From positions 1 through 29,526 of the IMG/VR virus record IMGVR_UViG_3300048574_000064: a DNA stretch of 29,526 nucleotides. One strand, written 5' to 3'. The stretch is from a virus (Duplodnaviria; Caudoviricetes). Position 1 is the stretch's first letter. Each line of letters opens with the position of its first letter. Shown one piece after another: positions 22-29,457 of the stretch. A program made the position numbers and the translations under genes. The notes under the pieces are model-generated. The model was not told the origin of the DNA. It searched no databases and saw only the letters and a list, made by a program, of their open reading frames with translations.

Positions 22-63
22 GGGGCCGTGGCGGAACTGGCAGACGCACTGGATTTAGGTTCC
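22..63 (+). pseudogene. 5' half of host tRNA-Leu(TAG), truncated in the anticodon stem by integration
   Basis: GGGGCCG-TGGCGGAACTGGCAGACGCA-CTGGA TTTAGGT TCC, then diverges. GGGGCCG pairs with CGGCCCC at 29491-29497. Confidence 0.93.
47..63 (+). repeat. attL core CACTGGATTTAGGTTCC
   Basis: Exact copy at 29441-29457; spans the 7-nt anticodon loop. Confidence 0.93.
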
Positions 64-151: not shown

Positions 152-1246
152 ATGGGCCAACTCTTCAAGAAGCCGGGAAGCTCAAACTGGTGGGCACGCT
201 ACACAGTCCAAGGCCAGCAGGTTCGAGAGTCCACCAACACATCCAATCGCAAAGAGGCAGAGAGATTCCTGTCCCAACGCATCGTCACCAACACGGTGCC
301 TTCCAGGGCCAGCATTGGCAGTCTCCTCGACACGCTCATCCAAGACTATGAGATCAATGGCAAGGATGCCGAATGGTGTCGCACCTACGTCGAGACACAC
401 CTTCGTCCTGCCTTTGGCGAAATGAAGGCTGATCGGCTGACCGAAGACCACATCCGCAAATTCGTTGGCGACAAGCTCAAGGCCGAATACAAGAACGCAA
501 CCGTCAACCGTTGCCTTGCACTCCTCCAACGGGCCTTCAAACTACGAAAAGTGCCATATCCAGGATTCCCGCTTCTGCAAGAGAACAACGTCAGGAAGGG
601 CTTTTTGACCAACCTGAACTTCTGGCAACTGTATACGAACCTGCCGAAGCACCTACAGCCGATAGTGCTCTTCGCCTTTGAAACGGGATGCCGGAAGAGC
701 GAAGTCTTGGGACTCAAATGGGACCAGCTTGATGAGATCAAAGTTGGTGACACCGTGCGCTACTGCGTCCGTCTCAATCCAGGCGAGACGAAGAACAAGC
801 AAGGTCGTGTGATTCCCTTGACCGATCTGATGAAGGAGCTGCTGGACAACATCCGCCCATTTTCCAAGTCCGAATACATCTTCACCTTTCGAGGCAAACC
901 GATACACGACATCCGCACTGGTTGGAAAAAAGCGTGTACTGATGCTGGTCCTGAATTTGAAGGTCTTCTCTTTCATGACATGCGAAGGTCCGCAATCCGT
1001 AACATGGTGCGTGGCGGGACTCCTGAAGGTGTCGCAATGGCAATCTCAGGCCACAAGACACGCTCTGTGTTCGAGCGGTACAACGTAGTCGATGAGGCGG
1101 ATCTGGCGGCGGCGATGCAACGCTACGAAGAATCCCGGAAGGCCGATCTTCAATACTTTGCCTCTGTTGCTGGTCCAGATCACATCCAACAATATGCGGC
1201 GAAGGCTTTTGAACACGAAATCGAAGTTCCCTTCCCTGAAGATTGA
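152..1246 (+). CDS. int: Tyrosine recombinase / phage integrase
   Basis: Catalytic motifs GCRKSE, ETKNK, FHDMRR, SGHKT, FERYN; N-terminal arm-binding-like segment (WWARY...VRESTNT); adjacent to att. Confidence 0.97.
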   Translation: MGQLFKKPGSSNWWARYTVQGQQVRESTNTSNRKEAERFLSQRIVTNTVPSRASIGSLLDTLIQDYEINGKDAEWCRTYVETHLRPAFGEMKADRLTEDHIRKFVGDKLKAEYKNATVNRCLALLQRAFKLRKVPYPGFPLLQENNVRKGFLTNLNFWQLYTNLPKHLQPIVLFAFETGCRKSEVLGLKWDQLDEIKVGDTVRYCVRLNPGETKNKQGRVIPLTDLMKELLDNIRPFSKSEYIFTFRGKPIHDIRTGWKKACTDAGPEFEGLLFHDMRRSAIRNMVRGGTPEGVAMAISGHKTRSVFERYNVVDEADLAAAMQRYEESRKADLQYFASVAGPDHIQQYAAKAFEHEIEVPFPED

Positions 1247-7531: not shown

Positions 7532-7618
7532 AATCGGCAATTAGCTACCCGTCGATTTTGTTCAACCACAGAATTGCCAACTCCAAATCGCTTCTGTCGT
7601 CGCTGAATAAATGTCGAT

Positions 7619-8284
7619 GTGCCATACTACATCGACAATCTTTCATTCTCGCTGGCTCTCGGCAATTGGGCAGCACAAAAACGACAAGCAATCAAAACTG
7701 AAACAAAAATCCCACCTATGCCCGATATTGTTGGCGAAGGTGTCTTGCTGATCGCCAGACATTTTGCCAACAAGCCCAACTTCCGCTACTATACCTACAT
7801 TGACGACATGGTGACCGAGGGTTTACTTGCTGTGGTCAAATACGGTCACAATTTCGACCTCACCAAGAGCAAGAACGGTCTGGCTTTCGTGACGCAAATT
7901 CTTCATAACGCTTTCGTCAAAGTCATCAAAGACGAGAAGGAACTCACATACCGCAAGATGGCCTTTGCCGAAACCTCAGATACAGTCCAACCCAAGACCC
8001 GGCAACGATACGCATCCGAAAATGCCGAGCACGAAAAATATGCAGCATGGAAACAACACAAACTCGACAAAGCCGCAATTTCAAAAACGAATCGAGAAAA
8101 GCGGAAGACCGAGACCAAAGAAAAACGGGCAGCAGCAAGCGGAACCATCACCACAGTTGCGCTGGTTCGTGAGTTCGTCTCGGCTGGAATCACTGACCCG
8201 AAAATCATCGCCGCAAAAACAGGCCGCAAACAAATGACAGTATATCAATCACTGCGTCGAGTCCAAAAAGAGATGGCAGCATAG
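7619..8284 (+). CDS. T4 gp55-like late-transcription sigma factor with basic linker and C-terminal HTH-like extension
   Basis: YIDN, IVGEGVLLIARHFANKPNFRYYTYIDDMVTEG, HNFDLTKSKNGLAFVTQILHNAFVKVIKDEK follow the gp55 pattern as I recall it (YVNN, IGxxxxxIAxxLSxxxNFxxY, MIxDG, HNFDxxKxKNPxAYxTQxxxxAFxxRIxKE). Confidence 0.85.
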   Translation: MPYYIDNLSFSLALGNWAAQKRQAIKTETKIPPMPDIVGEGVLLIARHFANKPNFRYYTYIDDMVTEGLLAVVKYGHNFDLTKSKNGLAFVTQILHNAFVKVIKDEKELTYRKMAFAETSDTVQPKTRQRYASENAEHEKYAAWKQHKLDKAAISKTNREKRKTETKEKRAAASGTITTVALVREFVSAGITDPKIIAAKTGRKQMTVYQSLRRVQKEMAA

Positions 8285-8315
8285 GAACAATAGTGCGTGC
8301 GTGATACATATTCGC

Positions 8316-8867
8316 ATGAAGAATGAATATTTGACCATCGGTGAGACGACCATCATTTATGTCGCCCACAAAGACGGCAGAGTTGACGAAGTGCTGATTG
8401 ACACGGCTGACTTTGAAATTGCCAATTCCATCCCCGGCACTTGGACGACAAGCAAGACTGGTCCGACATCAAGAAGCCCAATCTATTGCTACGCCAACAT
8501 CGCAGATGAAAACAACACCACCAGTAAGCAAAAGCGCAAGCCACGCCGGAACCTCTACCTACATCGCCTTTTGCATGGCGAACCGCAAGGAATGGACATC
8601 GACCACATCAACCGAAATGGTCTCGACAACAGACGTGCCAATTTGCGGGTGGTGACGACAGCCGACAATGTATCACGACGGGTGTTGTACAACGAGCCAG
8701 CCGTAAACAACACAACAACTGGAGTTCGCAACGTCAGCATCACACAGAGCGGAAAATATCAGGTGATGGTGTGCGGTGTCTATTACGGCTCATTTGACAC
8801 GATCACGGAAGCGGCCAAAGTTGCGGCTGATGCACGGATGGAAATCAACCGTAAGAAGGTCGCATAA
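8316..8867 (+). CDS. HNH homing endonuclease with C-terminal AP2-like domain
   Basis: LYLHRLL...IDHINRNGLDNRRANLR...N; TGVRNVS...YYGSFDTITEAA; start moved to ATG 8316, 5 nt after ATACATA. Confidence 0.9.
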   Translation: MKNEYLTIGETTIIYVAHKDGRVDEVLIDTADFEIANSIPGTWTTSKTGPTSRSPIYCYANIADENNTTSKQKRKPRRNLYLHRLLHGEPQGMDIDHINRNGLDNRRANLRVVTTADNVSRRVLYNEPAVNNTTTGVRNVSITQSGKYQVMVCGVYYGSFDTITEAAKVAADARMEINRKKVA

Positions 8868-8876
8868 ATACCTGCG

Positions 8877-9767
8877 GTGACGACAACAATGAAACCGCAA
8901 TCCATTCCATCCAATCCTTCAGTGCCAGACAAGGCGTACTACCCGGCAAGCGAACTCCAGACCGTCAGACGCTATAACCGTGATTCCTACTTCGCTGAGT
9001 TTGGCGAACAGGCTCCACCATTCGATTCCTCCAGACCGCCGAAGTTCTGGTTCGACTCAACAGCACTCGACAACCACGAACCAGATGAACGTCTCGCCTA
9101 CACGAAGCTCGTCTATGATGTCTTCGTTCCCTTCGACCTCAAGGCGTCGGAAGCGGCAACGGTCAACCTGCCGGGTGTGTATCAGTACCCTGCATACCAA
9201 GTCGAGCCAACACCAGCCGTTGTTTTGAGCGTGGTGAATTCGCCTGAGACTCCGATCAATGCCCGTCACCTGTCCAGCAAGGAAGACGCTGAAGCCATCG
9301 TCAGTGAGCTTGGAACGGCCTACAGCGAATCGAACTTGACTGATGGGCCGTACAGCGTCGATTGGCGTGGCGAGACCCGCAGATTCTATCAGGTGCGATT
9401 CAAGAACAACCTCTTGAACGTCGGCCAACTCCTGATCCTCAAGAACGCTGGTGGTGTCGGTGCGCCGGGTGCATGGAATCTTGATGGTGATGAACCGACA
9501 TGGACGCCAGCCTTACAAGAGACTGGCGAGAATGACCCACGGCCAGAGGTTCCGGTTCCAGTTCGGCGGCTGGCGAGTGTCGAGCGTCTGAGCGTGAATC
9601 CTTTCGGCGTGACCGTTTACCGCATGGACAGAGAGAGTCCGTACAATCCGAAGCCAGTTGTAGCGGTTGGCGGGTCAGGTGGCGGGTTGACGGCTGGACA
9701 GGAAGCTCTGCTCAACGAAATCAATCAGAACGTCTGGAAGGTCTTGAAGTTGATGGTGGGTGGATAA
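8877..9767 (+). CDS. Pro-rich hypothetical late protein
   Basis: 296-aa ORF; ATAAATA 6 nt before the GTG; no family recognised. Confidence 0.75.
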   Translation: MTTTMKPQSIPSNPSVPDKAYYPASELQTVRRYNRDSYFAEFGEQAPPFDSSRPPKFWFDSTALDNHEPDERLAYTKLVYDVFVPFDLKASEAATVNLPGVYQYPAYQVEPTPAVVLSVVNSPETPINARHLSSKEDAEAIVSELGTAYSESNLTDGPYSVDWRGETRRFYQVRFKNNLLNVGQLLILKNAGGVGAPGAWNLDGDEPTWTPALQETGENDPRPEVPVPVRRLASVERLSVNPFGVTVYRMDRESPYNPKPVVAVGGSGGGLTAGQEALLNEINQNVWKVLKLMVGG

Positions 9768-9776
9768 CCGGGCAAT

Positions 9777-10058
9777 TCAGCGGTTTCCGGCCCACAATTT
9801 CTGAGCAAACTGAAGCGTGAGGCCGAGACCATACGGGATGGCGAAATCCGCAATGGGTGGCACCCAAAACCACTCGTTGAGCACCTTCACAGGGACGACG
9901 AGAAACCCTATCAATCCAGCCAACCCTCCGACGATGAGAACAAGGGACGACCGCTGCTTTCGGAAAATCCATCCCAAAACGTAGACCACATTGCAGACGA
10001 TCCAAAGCAGAAAGAATGCAATGAGCGCAATCCCGAACACCCAACGAAGGTAGATCAT
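9777..10058 (-). CDS. Small multi-pass membrane protein (antisense moron)
   Basis: 93 aa from ATG 10058 with about 3 hydrophobic segments; fills the gap between two + strand genes. Confidence 0.65.
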   Translation of the reverse strand: MIYLRWVFGIALIAFFLLWIVCNVVYVLGWIFRKQRSSLVLIVGGLAGLIGFLVVPVKVLNEWFWVPPIADFAIPYGLGLTLQFAQKLWAGNR

Positions 10059-10122
10059 TCGACTTAATGACGAAGGGAGTGGCGCAAAAAGTCGGAACCG
10101 ATAAACGATTGGGGATGCAAAC

Positions 10123-10515
10123 ATGAAGCCGTGCCGTGTCAACAACTGTCCGAAGTACGCCACCGATCACGGCTACTGTGGCGACCACCAGAACAAGCAC
10201 CGACCTCCAGACCCACAGCAACAACGGAAGCGTGAGCTTGCGTGGAACAGACCCGGCCATCACCTATACAACACTTCACGCTGGCAACGCCTACGTGCCT
10301 CTGTGCTCATCCAAGAGCCACTGTGCCGCCTGTGCGTTGCCGATGGCGTGGTCTGTCTCGCCACTGAGGTTGACCACATCGAACCGCACAGAGGCGAAGA
10401 GGTTAAGTTCTGGTCGGGTCCATTCCAGCCGCTCTGCCGATCACATCACAACCAGAAGTCGGCAACCGAACGACAAGAGCGAATCAATCATTCAAATTCT
10501 GAGAGTGATAAATAA
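10123..10515 (+). CDS. Terminase-associated HNH endonuclease (HK97 gp74-like)
   Basis: KPCRVNNCP...GYCGDH, RWQRLR...PLCRLC, VDHIEPH, LCRSHHNQKS; directly upstream of terS. Confidence 0.92.
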   Translation: MKPCRVNNCPKYATDHGYCGDHQNKHRPPDPQQQRKRELAWNRPGHHLYNTSRWQRLRASVLIQEPLCRLCVADGVVCLATEVDHIEPHRGEEVKFWSGPFQPLCRSHHNQKSATERQERINHSNSESDK

Positions 10516-10616
10516 CATTGTCATTATGAATTGGCATCAGTGATTCGTCTCTCCCTATGTGGTGTCGTAGATAGGACTCGGATGGTCCCACTCCAACTGT
10601 TCGAGTCCTTTGGGGA

Positions 10617-10740
10617 TTGTCAAATAGGTACATCTGGCCTTGTCAAGTAGATACATCTAACACTGTCAGGGGATAGGGGCTTTAGAATCTAATACTTACG
10701 GGGAATAATACCGCACTCCGCTCACACGAAGGGGCGTTGA
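10617..10740. other. Probable cos/packaging region with 23-bp-period repeats
   Basis: Non-coding gap between HNH and terS; TGTCA at 10618, 10641 and 10664; G-rich GGGGATAGGGGC; exact cut site not determinable. Confidence 0.5.
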
Positions 10741-10763
10741 TATGTTTTAGGGTTTGACCTTTC

Positions 10764-11129
10764 ATGGCAAAGAAGACCATTTTCGCTGCACCAGAATTTC
10801 TTGACGAGACCGCAACAAACGAATGGAATCGCATTGTCTCAATTCTTGGAAGTAAGCTCACCGAATCCGATCTTGGCTCATTGACGGCGCTTTGTGCTGC
10901 CTATTCCCGATTGGTTGCTGCCCAAACCACACTACAAACAGAAGGGCAAATTGTTGTTTCAAAGACTGGTTGGTCAGCACCACATCCCTGCATCGGAATC
11001 GTCAACTCTGCAACCGATCAAATTGCACGCATTAGCAAAGAGTTCGGCCTGACACCTAATTCGAGGAAAAAATTCAAAGAACTCGAAGCCGACGCAACCA
11101 AGATCAAACGCAATACGTTGATTCGCTAA
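10764..11129 (+). CDS. terS: Terminase small subunit (P27 family)
   Basis: APEFLD..A..EWNRIV, LCAAYSRL, PHPCI, EFGLTPNSR. Confidence 0.93.
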   Translation: MAKKTIFAAPEFLDETATNEWNRIVSILGSKLTESDLGSLTALCAAYSRLVAAQTTLQTEGQIVVSKTGWSAPHPCIGIVNSATDQIARISKEFGLTPNSRKKFKELEADATKIKRNTLIR

Positions 11130-11144
11130 CTCACAGAAAGGATA

Positions 11145-12734
11145 ATGCCATACGACCAATCCAAAGCAGACCGTGTAATTCAATTCGCTGAAATGTATGG
11201 CGTACATAGCAAGGGTCCGCTTGCAGGACAGCCGTTGAAGTTGGCCGATTGGCAAAAGAGAGACATTATTGAACCTCTGTTTGGCACTGTCGATGAAAAT
11301 GGCCTTCGACAGTATAAGCAGGGTCTCATTTTCATGCCAAGGAAGCAGGGCAAGAGCTTTCTGTCTTCGGCTCTGTCCCTCTACATGCTCTTGGGCGATG
11401 GTGAATCGGGCGCTGAAGTCTACACTGTTGCCAGAGACAGAAGCCAAGCTGCAATCGTCTTCAACCAGACGGCTCAGTTCATCAAAGCCAGTCCAGAATT
11501 AAGCAAGCTCTGTCGCATCATAGACTCAACAAAACGAGTTCTCTACAAAGACCGTGTTTTGCGGGTGCTGAGTTCTGATGCCTCTTCAGCGATGGGATTG
11601 AACCCAAGCTGCTGCATCATGGACGAGATTGCCTTCTGGCCTGACCGAGACCTCTATGACGCACTCGTTTCAGCGACCAAGGCACGCAAACAGCCGCTCA
11701 TCCTCTCCATCACAACGGCATCGAACGACGTTTACGGCATCGGCAGAGAGCTTTACGACTACGCCAAGGACGTTCGGAACGGCATCAAGATTGACCCTCG
11801 ATTCTTCTCTTACATCCGTGAGGCACCCATTGACGCCGATGTCACTGACCGCAAGGTGTGGACACTGGCGAATCCCGGCATGGGCACTGCTGACGAAGTG
11901 GCTTCCGGCAAGGCGCTCTTTCCAATCACGGCTATAGAAGACGAGTTCGTACAGGCACTCAACGAACCTTCGGCCATGCTCCGTTTTCGGATGCTCACGC
12001 TGAATCAATGGGTGACGGAGCAAGAGACACCATACATTCCGCTGTCGAAGTGGGATGCGTGCTCAGAGCCTCTTCCAGACCTCGCCAACGCAACTTGCTA
12101 CGCCGGGTTGGACCTGTCGCAGAAGATGGACCTGACGGCCTTCTCAATGGTTTTTCCGCAGGGCGAAGGATTTGCAGTGAAGACCCATTTTTGGATGCCA
12201 GCAGAAGGTATCCGGGAGCGTGAGATCAAGGACCGGGCTCCATATTCGCAGTGGGCGCAAAAGGGATTCATCACCCTCATTCCTGGTCCGGTCGTGAAGA
12301 ACAGTTTCGTCATTACCAAGATTCTGGAGTTCGCCAAGGAACACAACATTCGTGAGGTCGCCTTTGACCGCTATGGCGCTGTCGATGTCGTTTCGGAACT
12401 TGAAGCCAATGGCCTGACTGTCGTTGAGTTCGGCCAAGGCTTCCTCTCCATGTCACATCCAACGAAAAGCCTTCGGGAACTCGTGTACTCGATGCAAATC
12501 ATTCATGGCGGCAATCCCGTACTGCGCTGGAACATCTCATGTGCTCACACGGTCAGTGATGCTGCCGCAAATATCAAAGTCGTCAAACAGGACAAGCGCA
12601 AGAACTACAACCGCATTGATGGCGTTATCACAACGATCATGGGTCTTGACCGTGCAATGAGACACAACCATCAGCCGCAAAACAAGCCTGATCTGAGCGA
12701 CTTCATAAATAGTCCTCTGGTGTTTACATTCTGA
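11145..12734 (+). CDS. terL: Terminase large subunit
   Basis: LADWQ, Walker A PRKQGKS, Walker B CIMDE, ITTA, GLDLSQKMDLTA, RIDG. Confidence 0.97.
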   Translation: MPYDQSKADRVIQFAEMYGVHSKGPLAGQPLKLADWQKRDIIEPLFGTVDENGLRQYKQGLIFMPRKQGKSFLSSALSLYMLLGDGESGAEVYTVARDRSQAAIVFNQTAQFIKASPELSKLCRIIDSTKRVLYKDRVLRVLSSDASSAMGLNPSCCIMDEIAFWPDRDLYDALVSATKARKQPLILSITTASNDVYGIGRELYDYAKDVRNGIKIDPRFFSYIREAPIDADVTDRKVWTLANPGMGTADEVASGKALFPITAIEDEFVQALNEPSAMLRFRMLTLNQWVTEQETPYIPLSKWDACSEPLPDLANATCYAGLDLSQKMDLTAFSMVFPQGEGFAVKTHFWMPAEGIREREIKDRAPYSQWAQKGFITLIPGPVVKNSFVITKILEFAKEHNIREVAFDRYGAVDVVSELEANGLTVVEFGQGFLSMSHPTKSLRELVYSMQIIHGGNPVLRWNISCAHTVSDAAANIKVVKQDKRKNYNRIDGVITTIMGLDRAMRHNHQPQNKPDLSDFINSPLVFTF

Positions 12735-13945
12735 TGGGTATTCTACAGCTAATCTCGAAGTTCTTGCCATTTTCGTTGGGTGATCCGACTACGCAATATA
12801 CAAGTCTGAACATCGGTGACACTTTTGTCGGCAAGGTGATTGATGAACGTAGTTCCATTGGCATCACGAGCGTATGGTCTGCCGTCCGTCTGATCGCTGA
12901 AACTGGTGGCTCTCTTCCGCTTCATTTCTACGAGCGTTCCAAAGACAACAGTGCGACACGCATTTTTCACCCATTGGACAACCTGCTGGCGAATGAGCCG
13001 AATGCCTACATGACATCGGCTGAATTTTGGGAATGCATGTTTGCGTCTCTTGCTCTGTGGGGCAATGCCTACGCTCTCAAAGAGACGAACACCCTTGGTC
13101 AAGTCATTTCACTCATGCCAATTGCGCCAAATCGCATGACTGTCGCTCGATTCCCTGACCGGATTGAGTACAGGGTTGCCGGGACCACTCAGACAGCCGT
13201 ATTCACGCCAGAGCAAATTTTCCATCTGAAGCTCTTTTCGTTTGATGGGCTGGTCGGCATCTCTCCGATTGCCGCATGTCGTCAAGCATTGGGCCTGTCT
13301 GTGGCTGCTGAAGAGTTTGGTGCTCGTTACTTCGGCTCTGGCGCAAGACCATCAGGCTTCCTGACCACGGATCAGGTGCTCACGCCAGAACAGAGGAACG
13401 CACTCAAGGAAACTTTCTCGTCTGCCAACGCCGGGTTGAGCAATGCACACAAGATTGCAGTTCTTGAAGCTGGTTTCAAATTCGATGCGTTGACCATACC
13501 GAACTCAGATGGTCAGTTCATTGAGTCCCGAAAGTTTTCTGTTGAGGAAGTCGCCAGAATCTTCAGGGTTCCGCCGCATCTCATCATGGATTTGAGCCAT
13601 GCCACGTTTTCCAATGTTGAAAATTTGAGCCTTCAGTTCGTCACCTATTCACTTCGCCCATATTTGGTGAAGGCAGAGGCGGCAATTCGACGGTCTCTGT
13701 TGAGTCCAGCCGAAAAGGCAAGAATCTTCGCTGAATTTTCTGTTGAAGGTCTTTTGAGAGGCGATCAGGCTTCAAGATCGGAGTTCTACAACAAATTGTT
13801 TCAAATTGGTGCGCTGTCGCCAAATGAGATCAGACGGCTTGAGCGATTGCCAACTTACGAAGGTGGTGACGAACACTTTGTACAGGTGAACATGGCGACG
13901 GTCAAGCAAATCGCAAGCCAAAGAACTCAAGTGATAAATAACTAA
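12734..13945 (+). CDS. Portal protein, HK97 family
   Basis: VWSAVRLIAE, PNAYMT, LWGNAY, GISPI, IFRVPPHLI, SPNEIRRLE. Confidence 0.97.
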   Translation: MGILQLISKFLPFSLGDPTTQYTSLNIGDTFVGKVIDERSSIGITSVWSAVRLIAETGGSLPLHFYERSKDNSATRIFHPLDNLLANEPNAYMTSAEFWECMFASLALWGNAYALKETNTLGQVISLMPIAPNRMTVARFPDRIEYRVAGTTQTAVFTPEQIFHLKLFSFDGLVGISPIAACRQALGLSVAAEEFGARYFGSGARPSGFLTTDQVLTPEQRNALKETFSSANAGLSNAHKIAVLEAGFKFDALTIPNSDGQFIESRKFSVEEVARIFRVPPHLIMDLSHATFSNVENLSLQFVTYSLRPYLVKAEAAIRRSLLSPAEKARIFAEFSVEGLLRGDQASRSEFYNKLFQIGALSPNEIRRLERLPTYEGGDEHFVQVNMATVKQIASQRTQVINN

Positions 13946-13946
13946 C

Positions 13947-14579
13947 GTGATGGAACGCAAGCATCTTACATTTCGATTGGACATCAAGGCCGAACCAGCC
14001 GAAGACGGAACTTTCACAGGCTATGCGGCGGTCTTTGGCAATGTTGATGCCGTCAATGATGTTGTGTTGCCGGGTGCCTTCACCAATACGCTGAAGAATC
14101 GCACGAATCCGTTCCCGCTTTGCTATGAGCACGACACCACCGAAGTGATTGGAGTGTGTGAGGAGATCACCGAAGACGAGAACGGCTTACTGGTGAAGTG
14201 CCGATTAGCCATCAAGACCGAAGATGGCCTCAAAGCATACGAATTGCTGAAAATGAAAGCCATCACAGGTTTAAGCATTGGCTATGCCGTGCCTCCAACC
14301 GGGGCGATCTGGAAAGACGGTATTCGGCAACTGAAGGAAATTGAGCTATACGAAGTTTCACTTGTGCTCTTTCCCGCAAACGAACAGGCCACAGTCACAG
14401 CAGTCAAGTCCGATGACATGGACGAAAGGAAATTGGAACGAATCTTGCGTGATGCCGGATTCTCCGCAAAAGAAGCCAAGACGGTCATCAGTCAAGGTTT
14501 CAAGTCGCTGAAGGCGCAACGGGATGTTGACGACGCAGTGAAGTTGTTGGAAGAAATCACAAAACTCTATCGGGGCTAA
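13947..14579 (+). CDS. Prohead protease, HK97 family
   Basis: FTGYAAVFGNVD, YEHD, GLSIGY, LYEVSLVLFPAN. Confidence 0.95.
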   Translation: MMERKHLTFRLDIKAEPAEDGTFTGYAAVFGNVDAVNDVVLPGAFTNTLKNRTNPFPLCYEHDTTEVIGVCEEITEDENGLLVKCRLAIKTEDGLKAYELLKMKAITGLSIGYAVPPTGAIWKDGIRQLKEIELYEVSLVLFPANEQATVTAVKSDDMDERKLERILRDAGFSAKEAKTVISQGFKSLKAQRDVDDAVKLLEEITKLYRG

Positions 14580-14597
14580 GAGTGCTCCAGAAAGGAA

Positions 14598-15719
14598 ATG
14601 GAAAATCAAGAAATTCTCAACCAAATCAAGACCCTGCATCAAGAGATGAAAGGCGTCTACGATCAACAGTTCGCAGAGATCAAAGCAAATGGCTTCGTCT
14701 CGCCTGAACTGAAGAGCAAATTTGAAAAGATGGAAGCCGACCAGAACCAGCTAATCAGCCGGGTCACTTCGCTTGAACAGAAGGGCATCAAGCCAATGGG
14801 TTCCGACAAGATCGAAACAAAGTCGGCTGGTGCTCAGTTTGTTGAGTCCGACAGCTTCCGTCAGATGGCCGAAGGCAAGTCCCGCAACGCCATCGCAGAA
14901 GTGAAGGCGACGTTCACCAGTCCGTCAATGGTCGCTCCGCAGATGGCCGCTCCAGTTGGCGCAAACATCTTCGCCTACAAGCTGCGTTCATACCTGCCGA
15001 CGATTCCGGTCCAGTCTGACGTATACAAGGTTCCTCAAGAGACCGCCTACACCAATAACGCAGGGCCGAAAGCCTATGGTGCGACTGGCAACGAATCGAC
15101 GCTCACAATCACGATGGTTGACGCCAACGTGCGGACCATCAGCCACTACACCAACGTCGCCAAGGAACTTCTGGTTGACTCGACTGCCTTTGCTGCATTC
15201 GTAGACAGCCGCATGACTTGGGGCTTGCAGGGTGCTGAAGAAGGCCAGTTGCTCATCGGTGACGGCACTGGCAACAACATCAAGGGCCTTGTCACATACG
15301 CAACCTCGAAGACCTTCACAACCGAATCCATGATTGACCGCATTGGCCTTTCCATTGGTGACGTTCTGAAGACCGGACATGCGCCTTCCTTCGTCGTGCT
15401 GAACCCTGCCGACTATGCCACCATCATGACCGCCAAGGCTTCGACGGCTGGCACGTATCTGTTGGGCAATCCTGCCTTCGGCTTCTCTCCAACCATTTGG
15501 GGCGTTGCCGTGTTGCCTTCCTCGAAACTCACGGCGAACAACTTCCTTGTGGGCGCATCTTCGGCGGCGGCTGTGGCTGAACGGCAAGGTGCTGTGGTGT
15601 CGCTCTCGTTTGAAAATGCCAGCAACTTCACATCTGGCATCGTGACGGTTCAGGCCGAACAGCGTGAAACTCTCGCTGTCTATGCGCCGGGTGCTTTCGT
15701 AACTGGCCTGTTGAGCTAA
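14598..15719 (+). CDS. Major capsid protein, HK97 family, with N-terminal coiled-coil delta domain
   Basis: Position after protease; EEGQLLIGDGTGNNIKGL, VLNPADY, IWGVAV; SD AGAAAGGA. Confidence 0.95.
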   Translation: MENQEILNQIKTLHQEMKGVYDQQFAEIKANGFVSPELKSKFEKMEADQNQLISRVTSLEQKGIKPMGSDKIETKSAGAQFVESDSFRQMAEGKSRNAIAEVKATFTSPSMVAPQMAAPVGANIFAYKLRSYLPTIPVQSDVYKVPQETAYTNNAGPKAYGATGNESTLTITMVDANVRTISHYTNVAKELLVDSTAFAAFVDSRMTWGLQGAEEGQLLIGDGTGNNIKGLVTYATSKTFTTESMIDRIGLSIGDVLKTGHAPSFVVLNPADYATIMTAKASTAGTYLLGNPAFGFSPTIWGVAVLPSSKLTANNFLVGASSAAAVAERQGAVVSLSFENASNFTSGIVTVQAEQRETLAVYAPGAFVTGLLS

Positions 15720-15731
15720 CCCTTTCACGTC

Positions 15732-15763
15732 GGGTGGGGCATCTTCATTGGTGTCCCACTTTT
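15732..15763 (+). terminator. Intrinsic terminator-like hairpin after the capsid gene
   Basis: GGGTGGGGCATC-TTCATT-GGTGTCCCACTT with a short T run. Confidence 0.65.
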
Positions 15764-15770
15764 CATCCAT

Positions 15771-15959
15771 ATGCAAATCAAAGCTACAAAACCGTTTCTT
15801 GGCTCAGTTGAGGGTGTCATCACCACAAATCAAGTGTTTGATGCAACCGACGCCAGAGCGAAGGAACTCATTGACATCGGCCTTGCCGTCTTTTACACAC
15901 CTGTTGAAGAGAGAAAGGTAGTCGCACCAGTTCAAGAGACCAAGAAGAAGACAAAGTAG
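15771..15959 (+). CDS. Small post-capsid phage protein
   Basis: 62 aa, RAKELIDIGLA motif, basic tail; usual position after the capsid gene. Confidence 0.75.
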   Translation: MQIKATKPFLGSVEGVITTNQVFDATDARAKELIDIGLAVFYTPVEERKVVAPVQETKKKTK

Positions 15960-15974
15960 TAACCACAACTAACG

Positions 15975-16340
15975 ATGAACGGCTTGACGTATATTTCGGG
16001 TCCGAGTGTTGAACCAATTGATTTGGTGCTGGCAAAGGCGCATCTACGAGTGCTCGACACAGCAGATGATTCATACATCACTCATCTAATTACAGCATCT
16101 CGACTGGCCGCAGAAAAGTATATCAATCAAGCCATCGGTTCACAAATGTGGAAAGATGCCGACAACCAAACTCTTACCATCGGCCTTGATCCGGTTCCGT
16201 CTGACATCAAAGCTGCAATGTTGCTGACCATCGGACACCTTTACGCCAATCGGGAATCAGTGACCATCGGCTCAACTCAGGGTCACGAATTGCCATTGGG
16301 CGTCAAGCATTTGCTTCAACCATATCGGGTGTACTCATGA
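15975..16340 (+). CDS. Head-tail connector (HK97 gp6-like)
   Basis: EPIDL..AKAHLRV...DDSYI, VPSDIKAAMLLTIGHLYANRE, LLQPYR. Confidence 0.93.
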   Translation: MNGLTYISGPSVEPIDLVLAKAHLRVLDTADDSYITHLITASRLAAEKYINQAIGSQMWKDADNQTLTIGLDPVPSDIKAAMLLTIGHLYANRESVTIGSTQGHELPLGVKHLLQPYRVYS

Positions 16341-16657
16341 TTCAAGCTGGCTCACTCGACACGCTCATCACCATTGAGCAATCGACAGAAATCCAAAACG
16401 CAGTAGGTGAACCGATTGCCGTCTGGACCGAATTCTGCAAAGCGTATGCCGCCAAGTCGTACAGAACAGGCAAAGAGTTCTTTCAAGCTGGCCGAACCGT
16501 TGCCGAAGGAACGGTCCATTTCACCATTCGGCATATCGACGGCATCACAACAAAAATGAGAGTGTCGCATGATGGCGTCCTGTACAACATCCTGTTTGTG
16601 AAACTCTCCAACAAACGGCGTGAATCCATCGAACTCGAATGTACTCAAGTCGCCTGA
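16337..16657 (+). CDS. Head closure / head-tail adaptor
   Basis: MIQAGSLDTLITIE, GEPIAVW, FTIRH..GITTKMRV, YNI. Confidence 0.92.
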   Translation: MIQAGSLDTLITIEQSTEIQNAVGEPIAVWTEFCKAYAAKSYRTGKEFFQAGRTVAEGTVHFTIRHIDGITTKMRVSHDGVLYNILFVKLSNKRRESIELECTQVA

Positions 16658-16682
16658 TGGACCAGAATCCATAAATACTGTC

Positions 16683-17189
16683 ATGGCAAGATCAGTGAGC
16701 GTTGATGGGCTTTCCAAGCTCCAACGGAACGTGCATCAAATTGTTGACAAGGCGCAAGGTGAAGCCGTCATGACAGTCCTTGGCAGGGCCGCAAACCAAT
16801 TCCGCAGACAGGCCATCGCCAACGCCGAATCCGAAGGTCTGCCGAAGGAAGTCGCTGATTCAATCTTTGCCTACGGGCGTCTGACGAAGGTTCGGAAGAA
16901 TCCATCAGCCTTGGTTGGCATCAAACGTGGTCCTGGTTCACCTTCTTACGTCGAATGGGTTGCTCACACTCCAACGGGAACCAGAAGCGCACAAGGCACA
17001 GGCAGAACCATCAACGCCAAGGCTGAACCCGGCAAAGTCATCGGAATGTCGCTGGCGTCGATGTTTGAATATGGAACCTCCAAGATGCCGCCAAGACCGT
17101 ATTTCGCACGAGCACTAAAAGAGAAGAGACCGGAAGTGAGAGCATTTGTAAGAGAAGAACTGTTGAAGGTTCTGACTCGGGTTGAATAG
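16683..17189 (+). CDS. HK97 gp10-like tail completion protein
   Basis: VDGLSKL, FEYGTSKMPPRPYF; start moved to ATG 16683, 5 nt after ATAAATA. Confidence 0.88.
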   Translation: MARSVSVDGLSKLQRNVHQIVDKAQGEAVMTVLGRAANQFRRQAIANAESEGLPKEVADSIFAYGRLTKVRKNPSALVGIKRGPGSPSYVEWVAHTPTGTRSAQGTGRTINAKAEPGKVIGMSLASMFEYGTSKMPPRPYFARALKEKRPEVRAFVREELLKVLTRVE

Positions 17190-17191
17190 CC

Positions 17192-17545
17192 GTGATCGAA
17201 TCAGAAATCAGAGCACTTCTCATCAACATCGGAATCGCCAAAGTGTATCCAATCGCAGCACCACAGGATACAGCATTGCCCTATGCGGTCCTGAATCGGA
17301 TCACCACCGATTCCGAATTGACGATGGATGGCGATGCGGCACTGAAGACAAACATCATTCAGATTTCCTATTTCTCTCAAAGCTCAACAGACGCACTCAC
17401 CAAAGCAGACGCCATCAGAACCGCATTGGATGGTTATCAGGGCGGCTCCATTCAATTGTCTTCCATTCAGAATGAAGGCTCCGCTTACGAATTTGACACG
17501 AAGCTCTATCACGTCTTCCAGCGGTACTCTCTGATTCACAGTTAG
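17192..17545 (+). CDS. Tail terminator (DUF3168-like)
   Basis: KVYPIAAPQDTALPYAV, IQIS, IRTALDGY; synteny. Confidence 0.85.
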   Translation: MIESEIRALLINIGIAKVYPIAAPQDTALPYAVLNRITTDSELTMDGDAALKTNIIQISYFSQSSTDALTKADAIRTALDGYQGGSIQLSSIQNEGSAYEFDTKLYHVFQRYSLIHS

Positions 17546-17553
17546 GCGCATTG

Positions 17554-17586
17554 ATAAATACCTTCGAGATTCCTTCGGAGGTATTT
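17554..17586 (+). promoter_or_regulatory. ATAAATA late promoter embedded in a 13-bp hairpin that sequesters the tail-tube SD
   Basis: AAATACCTTCGAG (17556-17568) pairs with TTCGGAGGTATTT (17574-17586), which contains GGAGGT. Confidence 0.7.
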
Positions 17587-17591
17587 CCAAA

Positions 17592-18011
17592 TTGGCTAAT
17601 AAGTATGCTGCCTATGGCGCTCAGATCGGCTTCGGCTCACCAATTGTCACTGTTGCGTCCGTCAAGTCGATTTCTGGTCCAAAACTCAGTGCCGAACAAT
17701 TAGATGTCACAACGCACGATTCGGCATCTTCGTATCGTGAGTTCGTCGCTTCATTCAAGGACAGTGGCGATGTCCAAATCACTGTCGTCTTCGATCCCGC
17801 CGAAGCCTCTCACGGCTCTTCAACGGGTCTTCTTTCGCTATTTGAATCTGGAGCGAAGACCGCATTCAAAATCACATTCCATTCGACGCCAGCGTCCAAC
17901 CTGTCATTCTCTGGCATTGTGACCGGGTTTGAATGGTCAAATCAGGAAGTCAACAGCATTCTTGAGGCTTCCATCACGATCAAGGTCAGTGGTCCTGTAA
18001 CCCTCGACTAA
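17592..18011 (+). CDS. Major tail tube protein
   Basis: VKSISGP, LDVTTHDS, KDSGDV, FSGIVTGF, ASITIKVSG; TTG start with GGAGGT. Confidence 0.92.
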   Translation: MANKYAAYGAQIGFGSPIVTVASVKSISGPKLSAEQLDVTTHDSASSYREFVASFKDSGDVQITVVFDPAEASHGSSTGLLSLFESGAKTAFKITFHSTPASNLSFSGIVTGFEWSNQEVNSILEASITIKVSGPVTLD

Positions 18012-18016
18012 GCACT

Positions 18017-18352
18017 ATGCGTGAATATCCTGTAAATCTCAAAGTTGCATTCGATTTGGGTGACGGCAAAATCCGTCACCTTGTCGTCACAACTGGTGCC
18101 CTCAGACGCCTTGACCAGAATCATGGCATTCGTTTCGATTCGGAATTTCTCAACCAGCCGCTTTACAAGATTGTGCCAGCCGCAATAGCCGAAAGTACGA
18201 TTGAGAAAGACATCACCATCGAAGACGTGGAAGAGCTTCCTGTAAGCACGCTCGAAGCTCTGGCATCTTCGTTCTTCTCGGCCTTAGCAAAATCAGTAGG
18301 AGTAGACGAACTCCCAAACGTCATTACGAGTCAGCCAGCCGCAAACCAGTAG
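18017..18352 (+). CDS. Tail assembly chaperone (gpG-like)
   Basis: Lies between tail tube and tape measure; slippery C-CCA-AAC at 18313-18319. Confidence 0.8.
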   Translation: MREYPVNLKVAFDLGDGKIRHLVVTTGALRRLDQNHGIRFDSEFLNQPLYKIVPAAIAESTIEKDITIEDVEELPVSTLEALASSFFSALAKSVGVDELPNVITSQPAANQ

Positions 18353-18693
18353 ATTGGCTGACTCTGTGGGCAGACGCCAGAGTCTACCTTAGTATTGAAG
18401 AAGATGAACTTTGGTCGCTCACCTTTGTTGAACTGAACAAGCTATTCGACACCTTCAAGCGCAAACAGGCATTTGAAGATTATCGGTTTGGCAAGTTGTG
18501 TGAAGTCATTGCTGCATCACAAGGCGCAAAAGCGAACAACGGCAATCCACTCACGCCAGCCTTCTTTTTCCCAACTGTGAATCAACTGACAATCGAATCA
18601 GACGGCAATGATTCATCAACCATGTCGGCAGAACAAATGACCACTTGGGCCAAACGATTTGCTTTGATCCAAGGCACGACACCAAAAGAGTAA
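18319..18693 (+). CDS. gpT-like -1 frameshift extension of the tail chaperone
   Basis: The -1 frame is open from the slippery site to TAA 18693 and reads ...YLSIEEDELWSLTFVEL... Confidence 0.8.
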   Translation, partial: RHYESASRKPVDWLTLWADARVYLSIEEDELWSLTFVELNKLFDTFKRKQAFEDYRFGKLCEVIAASQGAKANNGNPLTPAFFFPTVNQLTIESDGNDSSTMSAEQMTTWAKRFALIQGTTPKE

Positions 18694-18701
18694 ATACTGC
18701 T

Positions 18702-21239
18702 ATGTCCACATTAGGCGATCTGATTGTAAGGGTTGGAGCGAACGTATCCGGTTTTCAGGATGCGATGACTTCTGTTTTGGACCGTGCCGAAAAGACAGTC
18801 AAGGGTGTCGAAAGACAATTTGCTTCGCTCGACAAACTTGGAACTCGTCTCAGTGGACTTGGGCAAAATCTCACTTTTGCTCTGACATTGCCCATCGTAG
18901 GCGTCGGCAGTGCTGCTGTTAGGTCGGCAATGGACATGGAGAGTCTTGAAAAGGGTCTGATTGCCGTTGCCGGGTCCGCTGATGCTGCCAAGGCACAGAT
19001 GGTCAGATTGCAGGAGGTCGCCAAGCTGCCCGGACTTGGCATGTCAGAGGCGATCAAGGCCAGCATCAACCTGCAATCGGCTGGCATGTCCGCACAGACC
19101 GCCGAACGGTACGTCAAAGCCTTCGGCAACGCACTCGCTACCGTCGGCAAGGGCAAGGCAGAACTACAAGGCGTCATCGAACAGCTTCGCCAGATGTCCA
19201 GCAAGGCCAAGGTGACGGCTGATGACCTGAAGCCGATCATGAACGCTACTCCACAGGTGGCAAAGATCGTCAAGGAAGCGTTCGGAACCATCGACACGGA
19301 ACAGCTTCAGAAGATGGGGGTGAGCACAGCCATGTTCCTTGATGTGGTTGTTGCTGGCCTTGAGAAGTTGCCTCCAGCCGGGAACTCCACAAAGAACACG
19401 TTCGAGAACCTCTCAGACGCAATCCAACGGGCATCTTCATCCATCGGCAAGAATCTCCTGCCTCTGATGAACACGCTCATTCCGTTGGTGGAGCGTGCCG
19501 CAAACACGGTCGGTCAGTGGGGTGAAGAGTTCGGCAAACTTGACCCGGCAACACAGAGCTTCAGCATTGCCTTGGCTGGCGTCCTCGCTGTTTCGCCGTT
19601 GGTCGTCACTGCCATCGGAAGCATGGCGTCTGGCGTAAAAGGGTTGGCTGTCGCTTTCACCTATTTGCAGGGTCTTGGCGCATTCAAGATGCTCTTTTCT
19701 CCTGTCGGCCTGACCATCCTGACAGCGATGGCGGCAACGGCTGTCGTCTTGAAAGAACTGAAGAACCTCGACAGTCTTGGCAAGGCTGGCACTGATCGTG
19801 TGTACGCCGAAGCCACGAAGAAAGCTCAAGCCGATGAAAAGATGATGCTGGCCGAATCCGAAGCCGCATGGAAGACGCACGATGCCGCCATTGCCAAATC
19901 GGACCAAGAGCGAATTCAGAAGCAATTGGCTGGACTCGCAACGACCAAGGACAAGCACGAGAAAGAAGTTCAATTCGCACAAAAGAAGCTCTCCCTGTCA
20001 TTGGAAGAGCGTGCGTCACTGGACCTCACAGGCGAACGCTACAAGTCCGCTGAACAGTGGATTTACAACTACTACCGAACCAAGGCACTCGACAAGCAAC
20101 TAACTCAAGAACTGGTTGAAATTGGCGCTGGCCTCAGAACTGCACTATCAGATCAGACCGCAGAATACGCCAAACAGATTGAACCACTCGACCAAGTTGC
20201 CGAACGTCTGGAATCACTCAACAGGGCGGCTCAGTCCCTTTCGGAAATCAAAGTCTCTGATGGTCTCAAGGTCAGTTACGACAAAGCGACTGAAGCAATG
20301 CTGAAGTATCAGGATCGGCTGTCAGACCTTGGCGTCAAGACGGATGAAATCATGCGTGCGTCGAAAGAGAAGGTCAAGGATGCCATGCTCTCGACCATTG
20401 CCGCATATCAGTCTGGAGCAATCAGCTTGGACGAATTCAAGCGGGTCTATGCCGACCTCTTGAAACTTTACAACACGAAACCCGGCAGTGGTTCAAGCCA
20501 GCAAAAGACCGTCTTGACTGAAATCTCAACTGTTCTGACGAACATGAATCAGGACATTGCCGACGCTATTGTCAACTGGAAAGGTTTTGGCGATACGGCA
20601 ATGAATGTCTTAAAGCAAATTGGTAAAGCCATCATTGCGAACATCCTCGAAAAGATGGTGCTCACGTCAGGCCGTCTTGACGCCATCACAGGCGCACTCG
20701 GGGCGGGGTTGAAGAAGATCGGACTTGGCTCTCTGGTCGGTGGCGCAACCAAGGCTGCTGACATCGGATCAACAGCCGCTCAGACAGCTTCCAGTGCTGC
20801 TTCGAGTTCATCAGGTGCATTGGGCGCAATCGGCGGCATCGGTGGAGCCGTCAACATGGTGTCAGGTGTCGTGTCGGCAATCGGCTCTCTGGGAAGCATG
20901 TTCATGATGGGCAAAATGAACTCGAAGCTCTTCCAGATTCAGAGTTCGATGGTTGGTCTTGTCGGCAACTCCACAGGTCTGAACGAACAAATCAACGAAT
21001 ACTTGCCAGCACTCAAAGGGATTGAAGAGCGCATCAAGCAGCTAATCACTGGTGGCCTTGGCATCTACTCATTTCCTGATTCCGAAGTGCGTGTCCGCAT
21101 GGCAGATTCCAGCTTGGTTGGCGTTGGTGGGCAGATGGTCGTCAACGTCTCTGGTGGCTATTTCATGACCGATGGCGCACTGGACAGCTTCATCGACACA
21201 TTCATTACACGGCTTCGGCAGCGTGGCCTGAAGGTGTAG
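18702..21239 (+). CDS. Tape measure protein (845 aa)
   Basis: MSTLGDLIVRVGANVSGF start, Ala/Gly-rich helical sequence, hydrophobic segments; start moved to ATG 18702, 5 nt after GTAAATA. Confidence 0.95.
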   Translation: MSTLGDLIVRVGANVSGFQDAMTSVLDRAEKTVKGVERQFASLDKLGTRLSGLGQNLTFALTLPIVGVGSAAVRSAMDMESLEKGLIAVAGSADAAKAQMVRLQEVAKLPGLGMSEAIKASINLQSAGMSAQTAERYVKAFGNALATVGKGKAELQGVIEQLRQMSSKAKVTADDLKPIMNATPQVAKIVKEAFGTIDTEQLQKMGVSTAMFLDVVVAGLEKLPPAGNSTKNTFENLSDAIQRASSSIGKNLLPLMNTLIPLVERAANTVGQWGEEFGKLDPATQSFSIALAGVLAVSPLVVTAIGSMASGVKGLAVAFTYLQGLGAFKMLFSPVGLTILTAMAATAVVLKELKNLDSLGKAGTDRVYAEATKKAQADEKMMLAESEAAWKTHDAAIAKSDQERIQKQLAGLATTKDKHEKEVQFAQKKLSLSLEERASLDLTGERYKSAEQWIYNYYRTKALDKQLTQELVEIGAGLRTALSDQTAEYAKQIEPLDQVAERLESLNRAAQSLSEIKVSDGLKVSYDKATEAMLKYQDRLSDLGVKTDEIMRASKEKVKDAMLSTIAAYQSGAISLDEFKRVYADLLKLYNTKPGSGSSQQKTVLTEISTVLTNMNQDIADAIVNWKGFGDTAMNVLKQIGKAIIANILEKMVLTSGRLDAITGALGAGLKKIGLGSLVGGATKAADIGSTAAQTASSAASSSSGALGAIGGIGGAVNMVSGVVSAIGSLGSMFMMGKMNSKLFQIQSSMVGLVGNSTGLNEQINEYLPALKGIEERIKQLITGGLGIYSFPDSEVRVRMADSSLVGVGGQMVVNVSGGYFMTDGALDSFIDTFITRLRQRGLKV

Positions 21240-21241
21240 CC

Positions 21242-22561: not shown

Positions 22562-22582
22562 CCCGCTGAAATAAATACCTCT

Positions 22583-26659: not shown

Positions 26660-26674
26660 TAAATAAATATCTGC

Positions 26675-27040
26675 ATGTCTGATGTGAATCTACTCGAACG
26701 CCTGTTGGACCGGGCGGAAAAGATGTCCGAAGAGCTTGTCCAAGTGCGTGAGCAAGCAACGGCCATCCAAGCTCGACTTGACAAGATCAACGGCTCAGTT
26801 GGGCGGCACGACACCACAATCAACGAACTGAGAGTTTGGACGGCAACAAAGGACCAGTCATGCTCAGTCCATTTGCGTGAGATTGCGGACTTGGCGAAGG
26901 CGTTGAAAGAGCATCAAGACGAGAACCAAATCTCCAATCAGACCGTCCTCAAGATTGCAGTTCTGGCAGCAATCACGGTCATGACGGTGTTCCAGGTTGG
27001 TGGGCCGTTGGTTGAGAAGTTGGTAGGGTTGGTGAAGTGA
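26675..27040 (+). CDS. Coiled-coil protein with C-terminal TM helix; holin-like candidate
   Basis: LDKINGSVGRH coiled coil, IAVLAAITVMTVF hydrophobic tail; last late gene; ATAAATA 5 nt upstream. Confidence 0.6.
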   Translation: MSDVNLLERLLDRAEKMSEELVQVREQATAIQARLDKINGSVGRHDTTINELRVWTATKDQSCSVHLREIADLAKALKEHQDENQISNQTVLKIAVLAAITVMTVFQVGGPLVEKLVGLVK

Positions 27041-29440: not shown

Positions 29441-29457
29441 CACTGGATTTAGGTTCC
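29441..29457 (+). repeat. attR core CACTGGATTTAGGTTCC
   Basis: Exact copy of 47-63. Confidence 0.93.

Follow-up and report, generated by a model that had tools for sequence, protein, structure and literature searches.

How does a small temperate phage come to carry a late sigma factor of the kind found in phage T4, and what could such a factor do there? The question is raised by the gene at positions 7619 to 8284 of IMG/VR record IMGVR_UViG_3300048574_000064, a 29,526-nucleotide (nt) stretch of Caudoviricetes DNA that we analysed whole and call the window. T4 gp55 is the textbook minimal sigma, dependent for its full activity on the replication clamp, and it is treated as a hallmark of T4-like lytic phages; to our knowledge, gp55-type sigmas have so far been known only from large phages of that kind. 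The original prediction read the gene as a T4 gp55-type late sigma heading the late region of a small temperate HK97-like siphovirus, and went on to propose a transplanted, self-contained T4-style late transcription system. The analysis reported here bears out the identity of the gene and its setting, but neither the transplant nor the self-contained system. Our reading, which we hold to be probable, makes the product a divergent member of the gp55 family; it is predicted to associate with the core RNA polymerase of the host and to initiate late transcription from -10-only promoters, the ATAAATA boxes, without gp45 or gp33.

The sigma gene, its gp55 domain and its relatives

The gene and the first two parts of its product are the following (pLDDT, predicted local distance difference test; aa, amino acids):

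7619..8284, + strand: gp55-family late sigma gene, 221 aa, GTG start, with PHROG 234 and T4 gp55 matches
7619..7987, + strand: sigma-region-2-like gp55 domain, residues 1-123 (model helices 7-27, 36-50, 61-78 and 87-123)
7988..8152, + strand: low-confidence loop and long Lys/Glu-rich helix, residues 124-178 (model helix 136-173, pLDDT 51-73)

The GTG at 7619 is the sole usable start, because an in-frame stop lies just upstream at 7604-7606 and gp55 homology runs from residue 3-4 onward. In profile searches, the product matches PHROG 234, “late sigma transcription factor” (E-value 5.4e-36, residues 3-167), and T4 gp55 (PDB 7d7c chain F, 7d7c_F; E 6.7e-13, residues 4-116), in line with the gp55 motifs that had been read in residues ~1-115; the alignment to PHROG 234 and to relatives continues to about residue 167. 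In the ESM Atlas, the whole protein matches viral “late sigma” clusters at 0.92. We considered an ordinary sigma70 or extracytoplasmic function (ECF) factor and rejected it: Pfam Sigma70_r2 stays below its gathering score (18.9 bits against a cut-off of 24), Sigma70_r4 has no match in six frames at E<=10, and gp55 is the best match by profile as well as by structure, so that the refutation foreseen in the original prediction did not come about.

An AlphaFold model, built from an alignment with 25 gp55 proteins of the retrieved loci, has a mean pLDDT of 85.5 and contains, besides the helices given above, helices 179-188, 194-201 and 205-220. Confidence is highest in the gp55 domain, with pLDDT 83-98 across the first 110 residues and above 90 for most of residues 11-110. 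The predicted fold is sigma-region-2-like; as in the gp55 family, its fourth helix is extended and a fifth comes after it (helix-loop-helix). The top PDB match of the model in Foldseek is gp55 itself (7d7c_F; E 2.2e-4, TM(target) 0.68, root-mean-square deviation (rmsd) 2.7, 115 columns), and the next matches of the full model are sigma domain 2 structures. By sequence and by predicted fold, the product is a gp55-family protein.

We took the functional residues of T4 gp55 from Shi et al. 2021 (PMC7892883) and mapped them through the sequence alignment to T4 gp55. As described there, pockets of the T4 protein hold flipped adenines at -12, -9 and -8, the residues concerned being N13, L54, R57, F86, H95, Y97 and T99, plus R114. 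Their counterparts are as follows:

T4 N13, here N7: identical
T4 F86, here F79: identical
T4 T99, here T92: identical
T4 Y97, here F90: conservative
T4 L54, here F49: conservative
T4 R57, here K52: conservative
T4 R114, here K107: conservative
T4 H95, here L88: changed

Of these eight residues, by this alignment, three are identical, four conservative and one changed. At the contacts with the beta-prime clamp helices (T4 E70, D74 and E77), D63 and E67 are still acidic, the third position being L70.

A HMMER scan over 1.84 billion representatives returned 1912 matches at E<=1e-3, 371 at E<=1e-10 and only 3 at E<=1e-30, one of which is the query. The nearest relatives are 43-45% identical and align only to about residue 170, their C-termini being different. 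A word-based homologue search with the whole protein found the query only; single-protein scans of genome contigs and viral contigs gave no relative, TerL had no close relative in viral contigs, the representative P0007 was not found in viral contigs, and plasmid sequences held no match to the sigma.

Two scans of viral contigs yielded 151 loci, 150 of them with T4 markers adjoining the sigma (uvsW, gp47, gp46, gp23, gp20 or gp43; tblastn). The sole exception (locus L115, contig G001) is a 43.4-kb record classed as a provirus. Its 182-aa sigma (P0016), which ends in LAA, is accompanied by an integrase, an excisionase-like gene, endonuclease VII, TerS, TerL, portal, protease and scaffold, and is entered in the source as a hypothetical protein of a Bryobacteraceae metagenome-assembled genome (MAG), on a 1,017,364-bp contig. 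A second contig of temperate type, L220 (39.7 kb, the contig of P0009), combines a sigma that has an AP2-like tail with a serine integrase, a primase-helicase, an HNH gene, TerS, TerL and portal. P0005 lies on a 522,861-bp contig. Among metagenome contigs, 30 loci were found, 18 with T4 markers and 12, mostly short, with neither T4 markers nor those of the window.

In genome contigs, the alignment A2 retrieved 27 loci that match the N-terminal domain only, and the four that are annotated are all T4-like fragments binned into MAGs. We observed that gp55 genes (loci L008-L034) occur in MAGs labelled as archaea, candidate phyla radiation (CPR) bacteria and others; these are probably phage contigs binned into MAGs, since the four annotated contigs are T4-like, with the order uvsW-55-47-46. 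As a separate observation, in the 644-aa P0063 the gp55 homologue is broken after about residue 66 by an insert of ~420 aa with a helix-turn-helix (HTH) and resumes exactly (compare P0013); the insert looks like an intein or a homing-endonuclease insertion in the sigma domain.

We built a maximum-likelihood tree of 59 rows, namely the query, 39 of the 40 best-ranked representatives and 19 T4-context rows, none being dropped as longer than 300 aa. One split (support 92/83) separates a 30-row set, holding 17 of the 19 T4-context rows, from a 29-row set with all three temperate-context rows and two Ackermannviridae-type rows; the query sits in a 9-row clade with P0009 (support 95/84). As the root of the tree is arbitrary, we claim no direction of descent. 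On this tree, the query belongs to a separate gp55 branch.

Among 50,697 GenBank phage records, 2400 have a match, none covering 80% of the query, and no member of its gp55 branch was found; the best match, to a cyanomyovirus, reaches 84 bits, with members of the branch at 100-135 bits. Among the 40 matches listed, 39 are to records of 141-244 kb, and the one shorter record, a 53-kb Campylobacter myovirus, matches only residues 52-109. The closest cultured relatives among the matches listed are the gp55 proteins of T4-like cyanophages (Kyanoviridae, e.g., S-H38), 36-38% identical over residues 3-137; unlike the query, these are T4-core genes in genomes of 140-200 kb with g33 and g45, as described in PMC2984593, and the tree places them opposite the query. 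The gene is, thus, not a recent import from a T4-like phage, as “transplanted” would have it: its best cultured-phage counterparts among the matches listed share 36-38% over half its length, and it groups with proteins of integrase-bearing contigs, apart from 17 of the 19 T4-context rows. As for novelty, the literature covered, with subscription journals outside that coverage, yielded neither a temperate or small phage described with a gp55 homologue nor a mention of leaderless transcripts that depend on gp55. That no example had been described, as the original prediction supposed, agrees with this literature; the case is, however, not unique, since at least two more temperate-type contigs (G001/L115 and L220) carry such a gene.

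ATAAATA boxes in the late region

The heptamer ATAAATA occurs nine times in the window against 0.79 expected (11-fold), a count reached by none of 100 shuffles; all nine copies are on the + strand and confined to 8864-26669, in the late region:

8301..27040, + strand: late region, from HNH_3 nuclease to 1358-aa fibre (PHROG and Pfam)
8864..8870, + strand: ATAAATA, 6 nt before GTG 8877 (296-aa protein without assignment)
10508..10514, + strand: ATAAATA, end of HNH gene, 249 nt before TerS (10764)
12705..12711, + strand: ATAAATA, 22 nt before portal ATG 12734
13934..13940, + strand: ATAAATA, 6 nt before GTG 13947 (head protease)
16671..16677, + strand: ATAAATA, 5 nt before in-frame ATG 16683 (Neck1/tail completion)
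17554..17560, + strand: ATAAATA, 31 nt before TTG 17592 (major tail protein), with GGAGG between
22571..22577, + strand: ATAAATA, 5 nt before ATG 22583 (1358-aa fibre)
26659..26669, + strand: two overlapping ATAAATA, the second 5 nt before ATG 26675

With one mismatch allowed, TATAAATA has 15 sites against 4.3 expected. A box lies at most 45 nt upstream of 7 of the 18 late-region + strand genes and of none of the 11 early or minus-strand genes. Five of the nine boxes are followed at 5-6 nt by an ATG or GTG that opens an open reading frame (ORF) of at least 60 codons; the spacing is 5 nt at 16683, 22583 and 26675 (all ATG) and 6 nt at 8877 and 13947 (both GTG). Given the box at 16671 and the in-frame ATG 16683, the Neck1/tail-completion ORF likely starts at this ATG rather than at the listed GTG 16620.

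The 60 nt upstream of the boxes share no motif beyond chance (the best 5-mer, its position varying, is shared by 5 of the 8 regions, a figure that 6 of 200 shuffles equal), hence no conserved -35-like element, as in T4. A scan of the window for sigma70-type promoters gave no excess (17 against 14.4 expected). The -10-only boxes foreseen by the original prediction are, in short, there before the late genes.

These boxes may well be the promoters of the 7619-8284 sigma, because they fit the cyanophage gp55 late promoter, NATAAATA (Clokie et al. 2010, PMC2984593), and because the residues for A-12, A-9 and A-8 are kept or conservatively replaced. A box without the fixed first T of T4 fits that cyanophage consensus, and also fits cyanophage gp55s being the closest cultured relatives. 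If the flipped adenines lie at -12, -9 and -8 as in T4, the box would end at -6 and the sixth base after it would be +1; with that box end, the five abutting boxes are predicted to give leaderless mRNAs, whose 5' end would coincide with the start codon or precede it by 1 nt. Short leaders, one of them with a GGAGG, would result from the boxes 22-31 nt upstream.

The pairing of sigma and boxes recurs in two unrelated integrase-bearing phage contigs. G001 has four ATAAATA on the forward strand and none on the reverse; the protease GTG follows one of them at 6 nt, and an ATG follows another at 5 nt. In L220, boxes are followed by an ATG at 5 nt and by the portal GTG at 6 nt. As a control, we took 176 T4-like loci (L008-L033 and L035-L185), partly redundant, in which 76 of 483 boxes lie 5-6 nt before an ATG or GTG opening an ORF of at least 60 codons. 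Start-abutting boxes are commoner here than in T4-like loci, and not unique to this prophage. Such start-codon-abutting late promoters may be common in marine T4-like phages too.

One has to ask whether ATAAATA could be mainly a translation-initiation signal, that is, an A/U-rich, Shine-Dalgarno-free site for ribosome loading, or a dual signal, with the late genes forming one long operon read from a single promoter and the sigma acting at one or few sites. Five boxes do stand 5-6 nt before starts, at the Shine-Dalgarno position, in genes that have no Shine-Dalgarno sequence; the sigma gene has a near-box at the same position; and the same spacing is seen in G001, in L220 and in the 76 boxes of T4-like loci. 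Against this, three boxes are 11-31 nt from the next start, one of them with its own GGAGG, and another is 249 nt before TerS; no box accompanies any of the 11 early or minus-strand genes, although the same ribosomes read them, and other genes of the window use AGGA/GGAG-type sites. The exact 7-mer is, moreover, the known promoter core of the gp55 family (PMC2984593). We consider this explanation unlikely.

The C-terminal domain, the absent T4 partners and control of the gene

Downstream of the gp55 domain and the long helix, the protein ends with two further features:

8153..8278, + strand: three-helix HTH domain, residues 179-220 (pLDDT 92-94 in the full model)
8276..8281, + strand: C-terminal Ala-Ala, shared by the query and 7 of the 12 representatives at HMMER ranks 2-13

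Modelled by itself, the HTH domain has a mean pLDDT of 78.8. Pfam gives HTH_23 at E 0.08 for the C-terminal domain, and profile searches against PDB sequences give ComA (LuxR-type) at E 0.03-0.045 and 434 repressor at E 0.2-0.4; Foldseek returns generic DNA-binding HTH folds only (best E 0.84), among which SigR region 4 ranks 47th. An ESM Atlas match for the C-terminal part (0.75) is a lead only, to a cluster with Sigma70_r4 in 33% of its members. The C-terminal domain had no match in GenBank phages at E<=1, and a word-based homologue search with the C-terminal alignment returned only its three input proteins. The model thus presents a helix-turn-helix, not a proven region 4.

An HTH of the query type is common only to P0008 and P0004. 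Among other relatives, P0042 has another HTH-like tail, P0002 and P0009 an AP2-like module, and P0003, P0006 and P0010 nothing. An AP2-like C-terminal motif is also found in the HNH_3 protein encoded next to the sigma gene (8301-8867; GKYQVMVCGVYYGSFDTITEAAKVA), and resembles the sigma-fused modules of P0002 and P0009, which suggests that DNA-binding domains are shuffled between neighbouring genes.

None of the T4 partners was detected. The gp45 clamp family (PF02916) was not found in the window in six frames at E<=1, and no clamp has a PHROG match among the 29 ORFs of at least 106 aa; nor has the gp33 coactivator among these ORFs, the small ORFs having been read by eye only and not scanned. 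It has to be kept in mind that gp33 is poorly conserved, as stated in PMC2988020. The hydrophobic-acidic clamp-binding tail of T4 type is not present either: the HTH, which ends in ...RRVQKEMAA, does not align to T4-type tails and stands in their place. The “self-contained T4-style system” is not supported by these results. In our reading, the C-terminal HTH, borne on the long basic helix, would likely serve as a built-in anchor to DNA or RNA polymerase, replacing the gp33/gp45 tether.

The Ala-Ala end is rare beyond the closest relatives (3 of 137 at HMMER ranks 14-150) and absent from the 136 distinct complete gp55 C-termini of T4-context loci. What is known of the ssrA tag and ClpX is the basis for reading it as a degradation signal; by this analogy, the conserved Ala-Ala likely acts as an ssrA-like degradation tag, which would keep the sigma scarce in lysogens.

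The start of the gene has two features of its own:

7607..7613, + strand: near-box ATAAATG, 5 nt before the sigma's own GTG
7612..7637, + strand: hairpin/palindrome with a 10-bp stem, containing the GTG start (RNA fold -18.5 kcal/mol, z -3.5)

None of 200 shuffles is as stable as the hairpin. The palindrome half-site TGTCGATGT is not clearly repeated elsewhere: 18 matches were counted where 9.9 are expected, and one shuffle in 100 gave as many. The G001 sigma gene is preceded by CTAAATG, 5 nt and ATG, and the L220 sigma gene has no such box. We speculate that weak read-through expression, masked by the hairpin, would be followed by self-amplification of the sigma from the near-box.

Could the protein instead be a full two-domain sigma, its HTH a true equivalent of region 4 that binds the beta-flap tip, perhaps with a degenerate upstream element? 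Such a protein would answer to the fused late sigma of gp55-gp33 type, which had not been found according to Geiduschek and Kassavetis, who raise the question in PMC2988020. The architecture (a sigma-2-like domain joined by a long linker to a three-helix HTH at the C-terminus) would suit it, and SigR region 4 and LuxR-type HTHs are among the weak matches; Foldseek also aligns the full model with whole sigma factors over 190-298 columns, but at an rmsd of 17-25. Sigma70_r4, however, has no match even at the permissive threshold used, the best structural match of the domain is at E 0.84 with matches that mix unrelated HTH classes, no -35-like motif is conserved, and relatives swap the domain for an AP2-like fold or lack it, so we regard this possibility as quite improbable.

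Very improbable, in our view, is that the gene is a recently captured or decaying T4-like piece without a working sigma (a passenger or a polymerase-binding inhibitor), the boxes being chance AT-rich intergenic sequence: gp33, gp45 and the clamp-binding tail are indeed undetected, and one polymerase-contact and one DNA-pocket residue differ, but the frame is intact with a confidently modelled N-terminal domain (pLDDT >90 over most of residues 11-110), the protein's branch is diverse and has its own conserved traits (an Ala-Ala end, DNA-binding tails that can be swapped), the boxes, 11 times as frequent as expected, keep to one strand and to the late region, and the sigma-box pairing recurs in two unrelated phages.

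Several points nevertheless weigh against a clamp-free sigma acting at ATAAATA promoters. One of the three polymerase clamp-helix contact residues is lost (T4 E77 is L70), and the pocket residue H95 is L88. The HTH has no significant structural or sequence match, and it is not essential to the family, because several close relatives are without it. Two of the boxes of L220 are on the minus strand, and boxes that abut a start also occur in T4-like contigs, as counted above. A translational role is possible, because the boxes stand at the position of a ribosome-binding site and the sigma gene has its own near-box. GTG starts are poor for leaderless translation in E. coli, and two of the five start-abutting boxes precede a GTG. 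No RNA sequencing run is listed with the prophage sequence, which is found in four DNA runs (shares 0.06-0.08). Finally, a clamp-free system might be weak, because T4 gp55 alone gives basal transcription only (PMC7892883).

The prophage and its place among late-gene switches

The element that carries the gene is delimited by the following features:

47..63, no strand: attL core, the 17-nt direct repeat CACTGGATTTAGGTTCC, at the end of the 5' half of a split host tRNA-Leu (22-63)
29441..29457, no strand: attR core, CACTGGATTTAGGTTCC, followed by the 3' half of the host tRNA-Leu, to 29501
152..1246, + strand: tyrosine integrase (PHROG 1, E 1.6e-50; Pfam Phage_integrase, E 3.5e-16)

Since the 17-nt direct repeats split a host tRNA-Leu at both ends, the prophage is whole, at ~29.4 kb; the CheckV estimate in the record is only 39% complete, despite this att-bounded whole element. 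From left to right, PHROG and Pfam matches give the integrase, early genes without assignment, a RES-domain protein (6713-7531), the sigma and the late region. The latter comprises HNH_3, the 296-aa protein without assignment, a second HNH, TerS, TerL, portal, protease, an HK97-type major capsid protein, connectors/adaptors, Neck1/tail completion, tail terminator, major tail protein, tape measure, a tail protein and the 1358-aa fibre. The sigma gene, directly upstream of the first HNH gene, does head the late region, and no tail sheath has a match among the 29 ORFs scanned against PHROGs. The gene content supports, as originally described, a small temperate HK97-like siphovirus; the tail is of the non-contractile kind. 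Neither PHROGs nor Pfam revealed a gene for replication, a repressor, a holin or an endolysin in the complete 29.4-kb prophage.

A few other features of the element deserve mention. The host tRNA-Leu(TAG) is broken in its anticodon stem-loop by the insertion and is not rebuilt; a complete tRNA-Leu(TAG) borne by the prophage at 29216-29301, ~140 nt inside attR, would replace the broken gene. Repeats of the CTGTGCTAA type, found next to each end (at about 125-145 and 29340-29375), may be arm sites of the integrase. The RES-domain protein directly upstream of the sigma gene (Pfam RES, E 4e-21) is of the toxin type of RES-Xre pairs, and no Xre partner is recognisable among the matches. Several ORFs between 1332 and 6381 and at 26675-28022 have no PHROG or Pfam assignment. 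In the early region, an 83-nt direct repeat (96% identical) occurs at 5407-5489 and 6536-6618, 1129 nt apart, beside ~1 kb (4880-5910) without a convincing ORF; the repeat, for which Rfam gave no match, could be an origin, iterons or a small RNA.

Compared with T4 gp55 (7d7c_F), the protein has the sigma-region-2-like fold and the long fourth helix, with 31% identity over 115 aligned columns; the DNA-pocket residues are mostly kept, the predicted promoter is likewise a -10-only AT-rich core without a -35, and the gene likewise heads virion gene expression. The differences lie in the undetected gp45, gp33 and clamp-binding tail, in the extra HTH and Ala-Ala end, and in the carrier, here a 29-kb integrating element of siphovirus type, whereas the T4 group are lytic myoviruses of at least 140 kb; their conserved uvsW-55-47-46 neighbourhood is absent here. 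Geiduschek and Kassavetis 2010 (PMC2988020) count gp55 homologues among the core genes of the T4 family.

By its position between early/replication genes and terminase, and by its presumed job of turning on the packaging, head and tail genes, the gene resembles lambda Q, RinA, ArpU, P2 Ogr and Mu C. Lambda Q, ArpU, P2 Ogr and Mu C are antiterminators or activators that use the host primary sigma at one or a few promoters, and RinA, a late activator, is of this kind too (PMC3152322). What is predicted here is, unlike these, a replacement sigma acting at about eight boxes across the operon. Small size and a region-2-like domain with a C-terminal HTH behind it are shared with ECF-type factors and other phage members of the sigma70 family (e.g., SPO1 gp28/gp34), but the present protein differs from them in its sub-threshold Sigma70_r2, in having neither Sigma70_r4 nor a -35, and in matching gp55 best. 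What appears new here, from sequence and model, is that a genuine gp55-family sigma, its function being predicted, turns up in an unexpected carrier phage and with a different accessory architecture.

A broader picture, which we offer as possible and tentative, is that temperate phages of environmental bacteria have their own lineage of single-polypeptide T4-type sigmas, in which ATAAATA is read by a gp55-like domain, a swappable C-terminal DNA-binding module of HTH or AP2-like type replaces the gp33/gp45 clamp tether, the protein is short-lived through its Ala-Ala end, and many promoters start transcription right at the start codon, giving leaderless virion mRNAs. If this were true, the lineage would supply the “fused late-transcription sigma” whose absence the T4 field has remarked on, and possibly a simpler state from which the clamp-coupled system of T4 was built. 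Geiduschek and Kassavetis 2010 ask why no fused late sigma has been found (PMC2988020), a question on which a clamp-free gp55 relative bears. The leaderless late mRNAs are a directly testable prediction. A clamp-free relative of gp55 would offer a one-protein system for -10-only promoter recognition and, in small integrating phages, would widen the known late-gene switches of temperate phages; for annotation, the rule that follows is that a gp55 match alone is not evidence of a T4-like phage.

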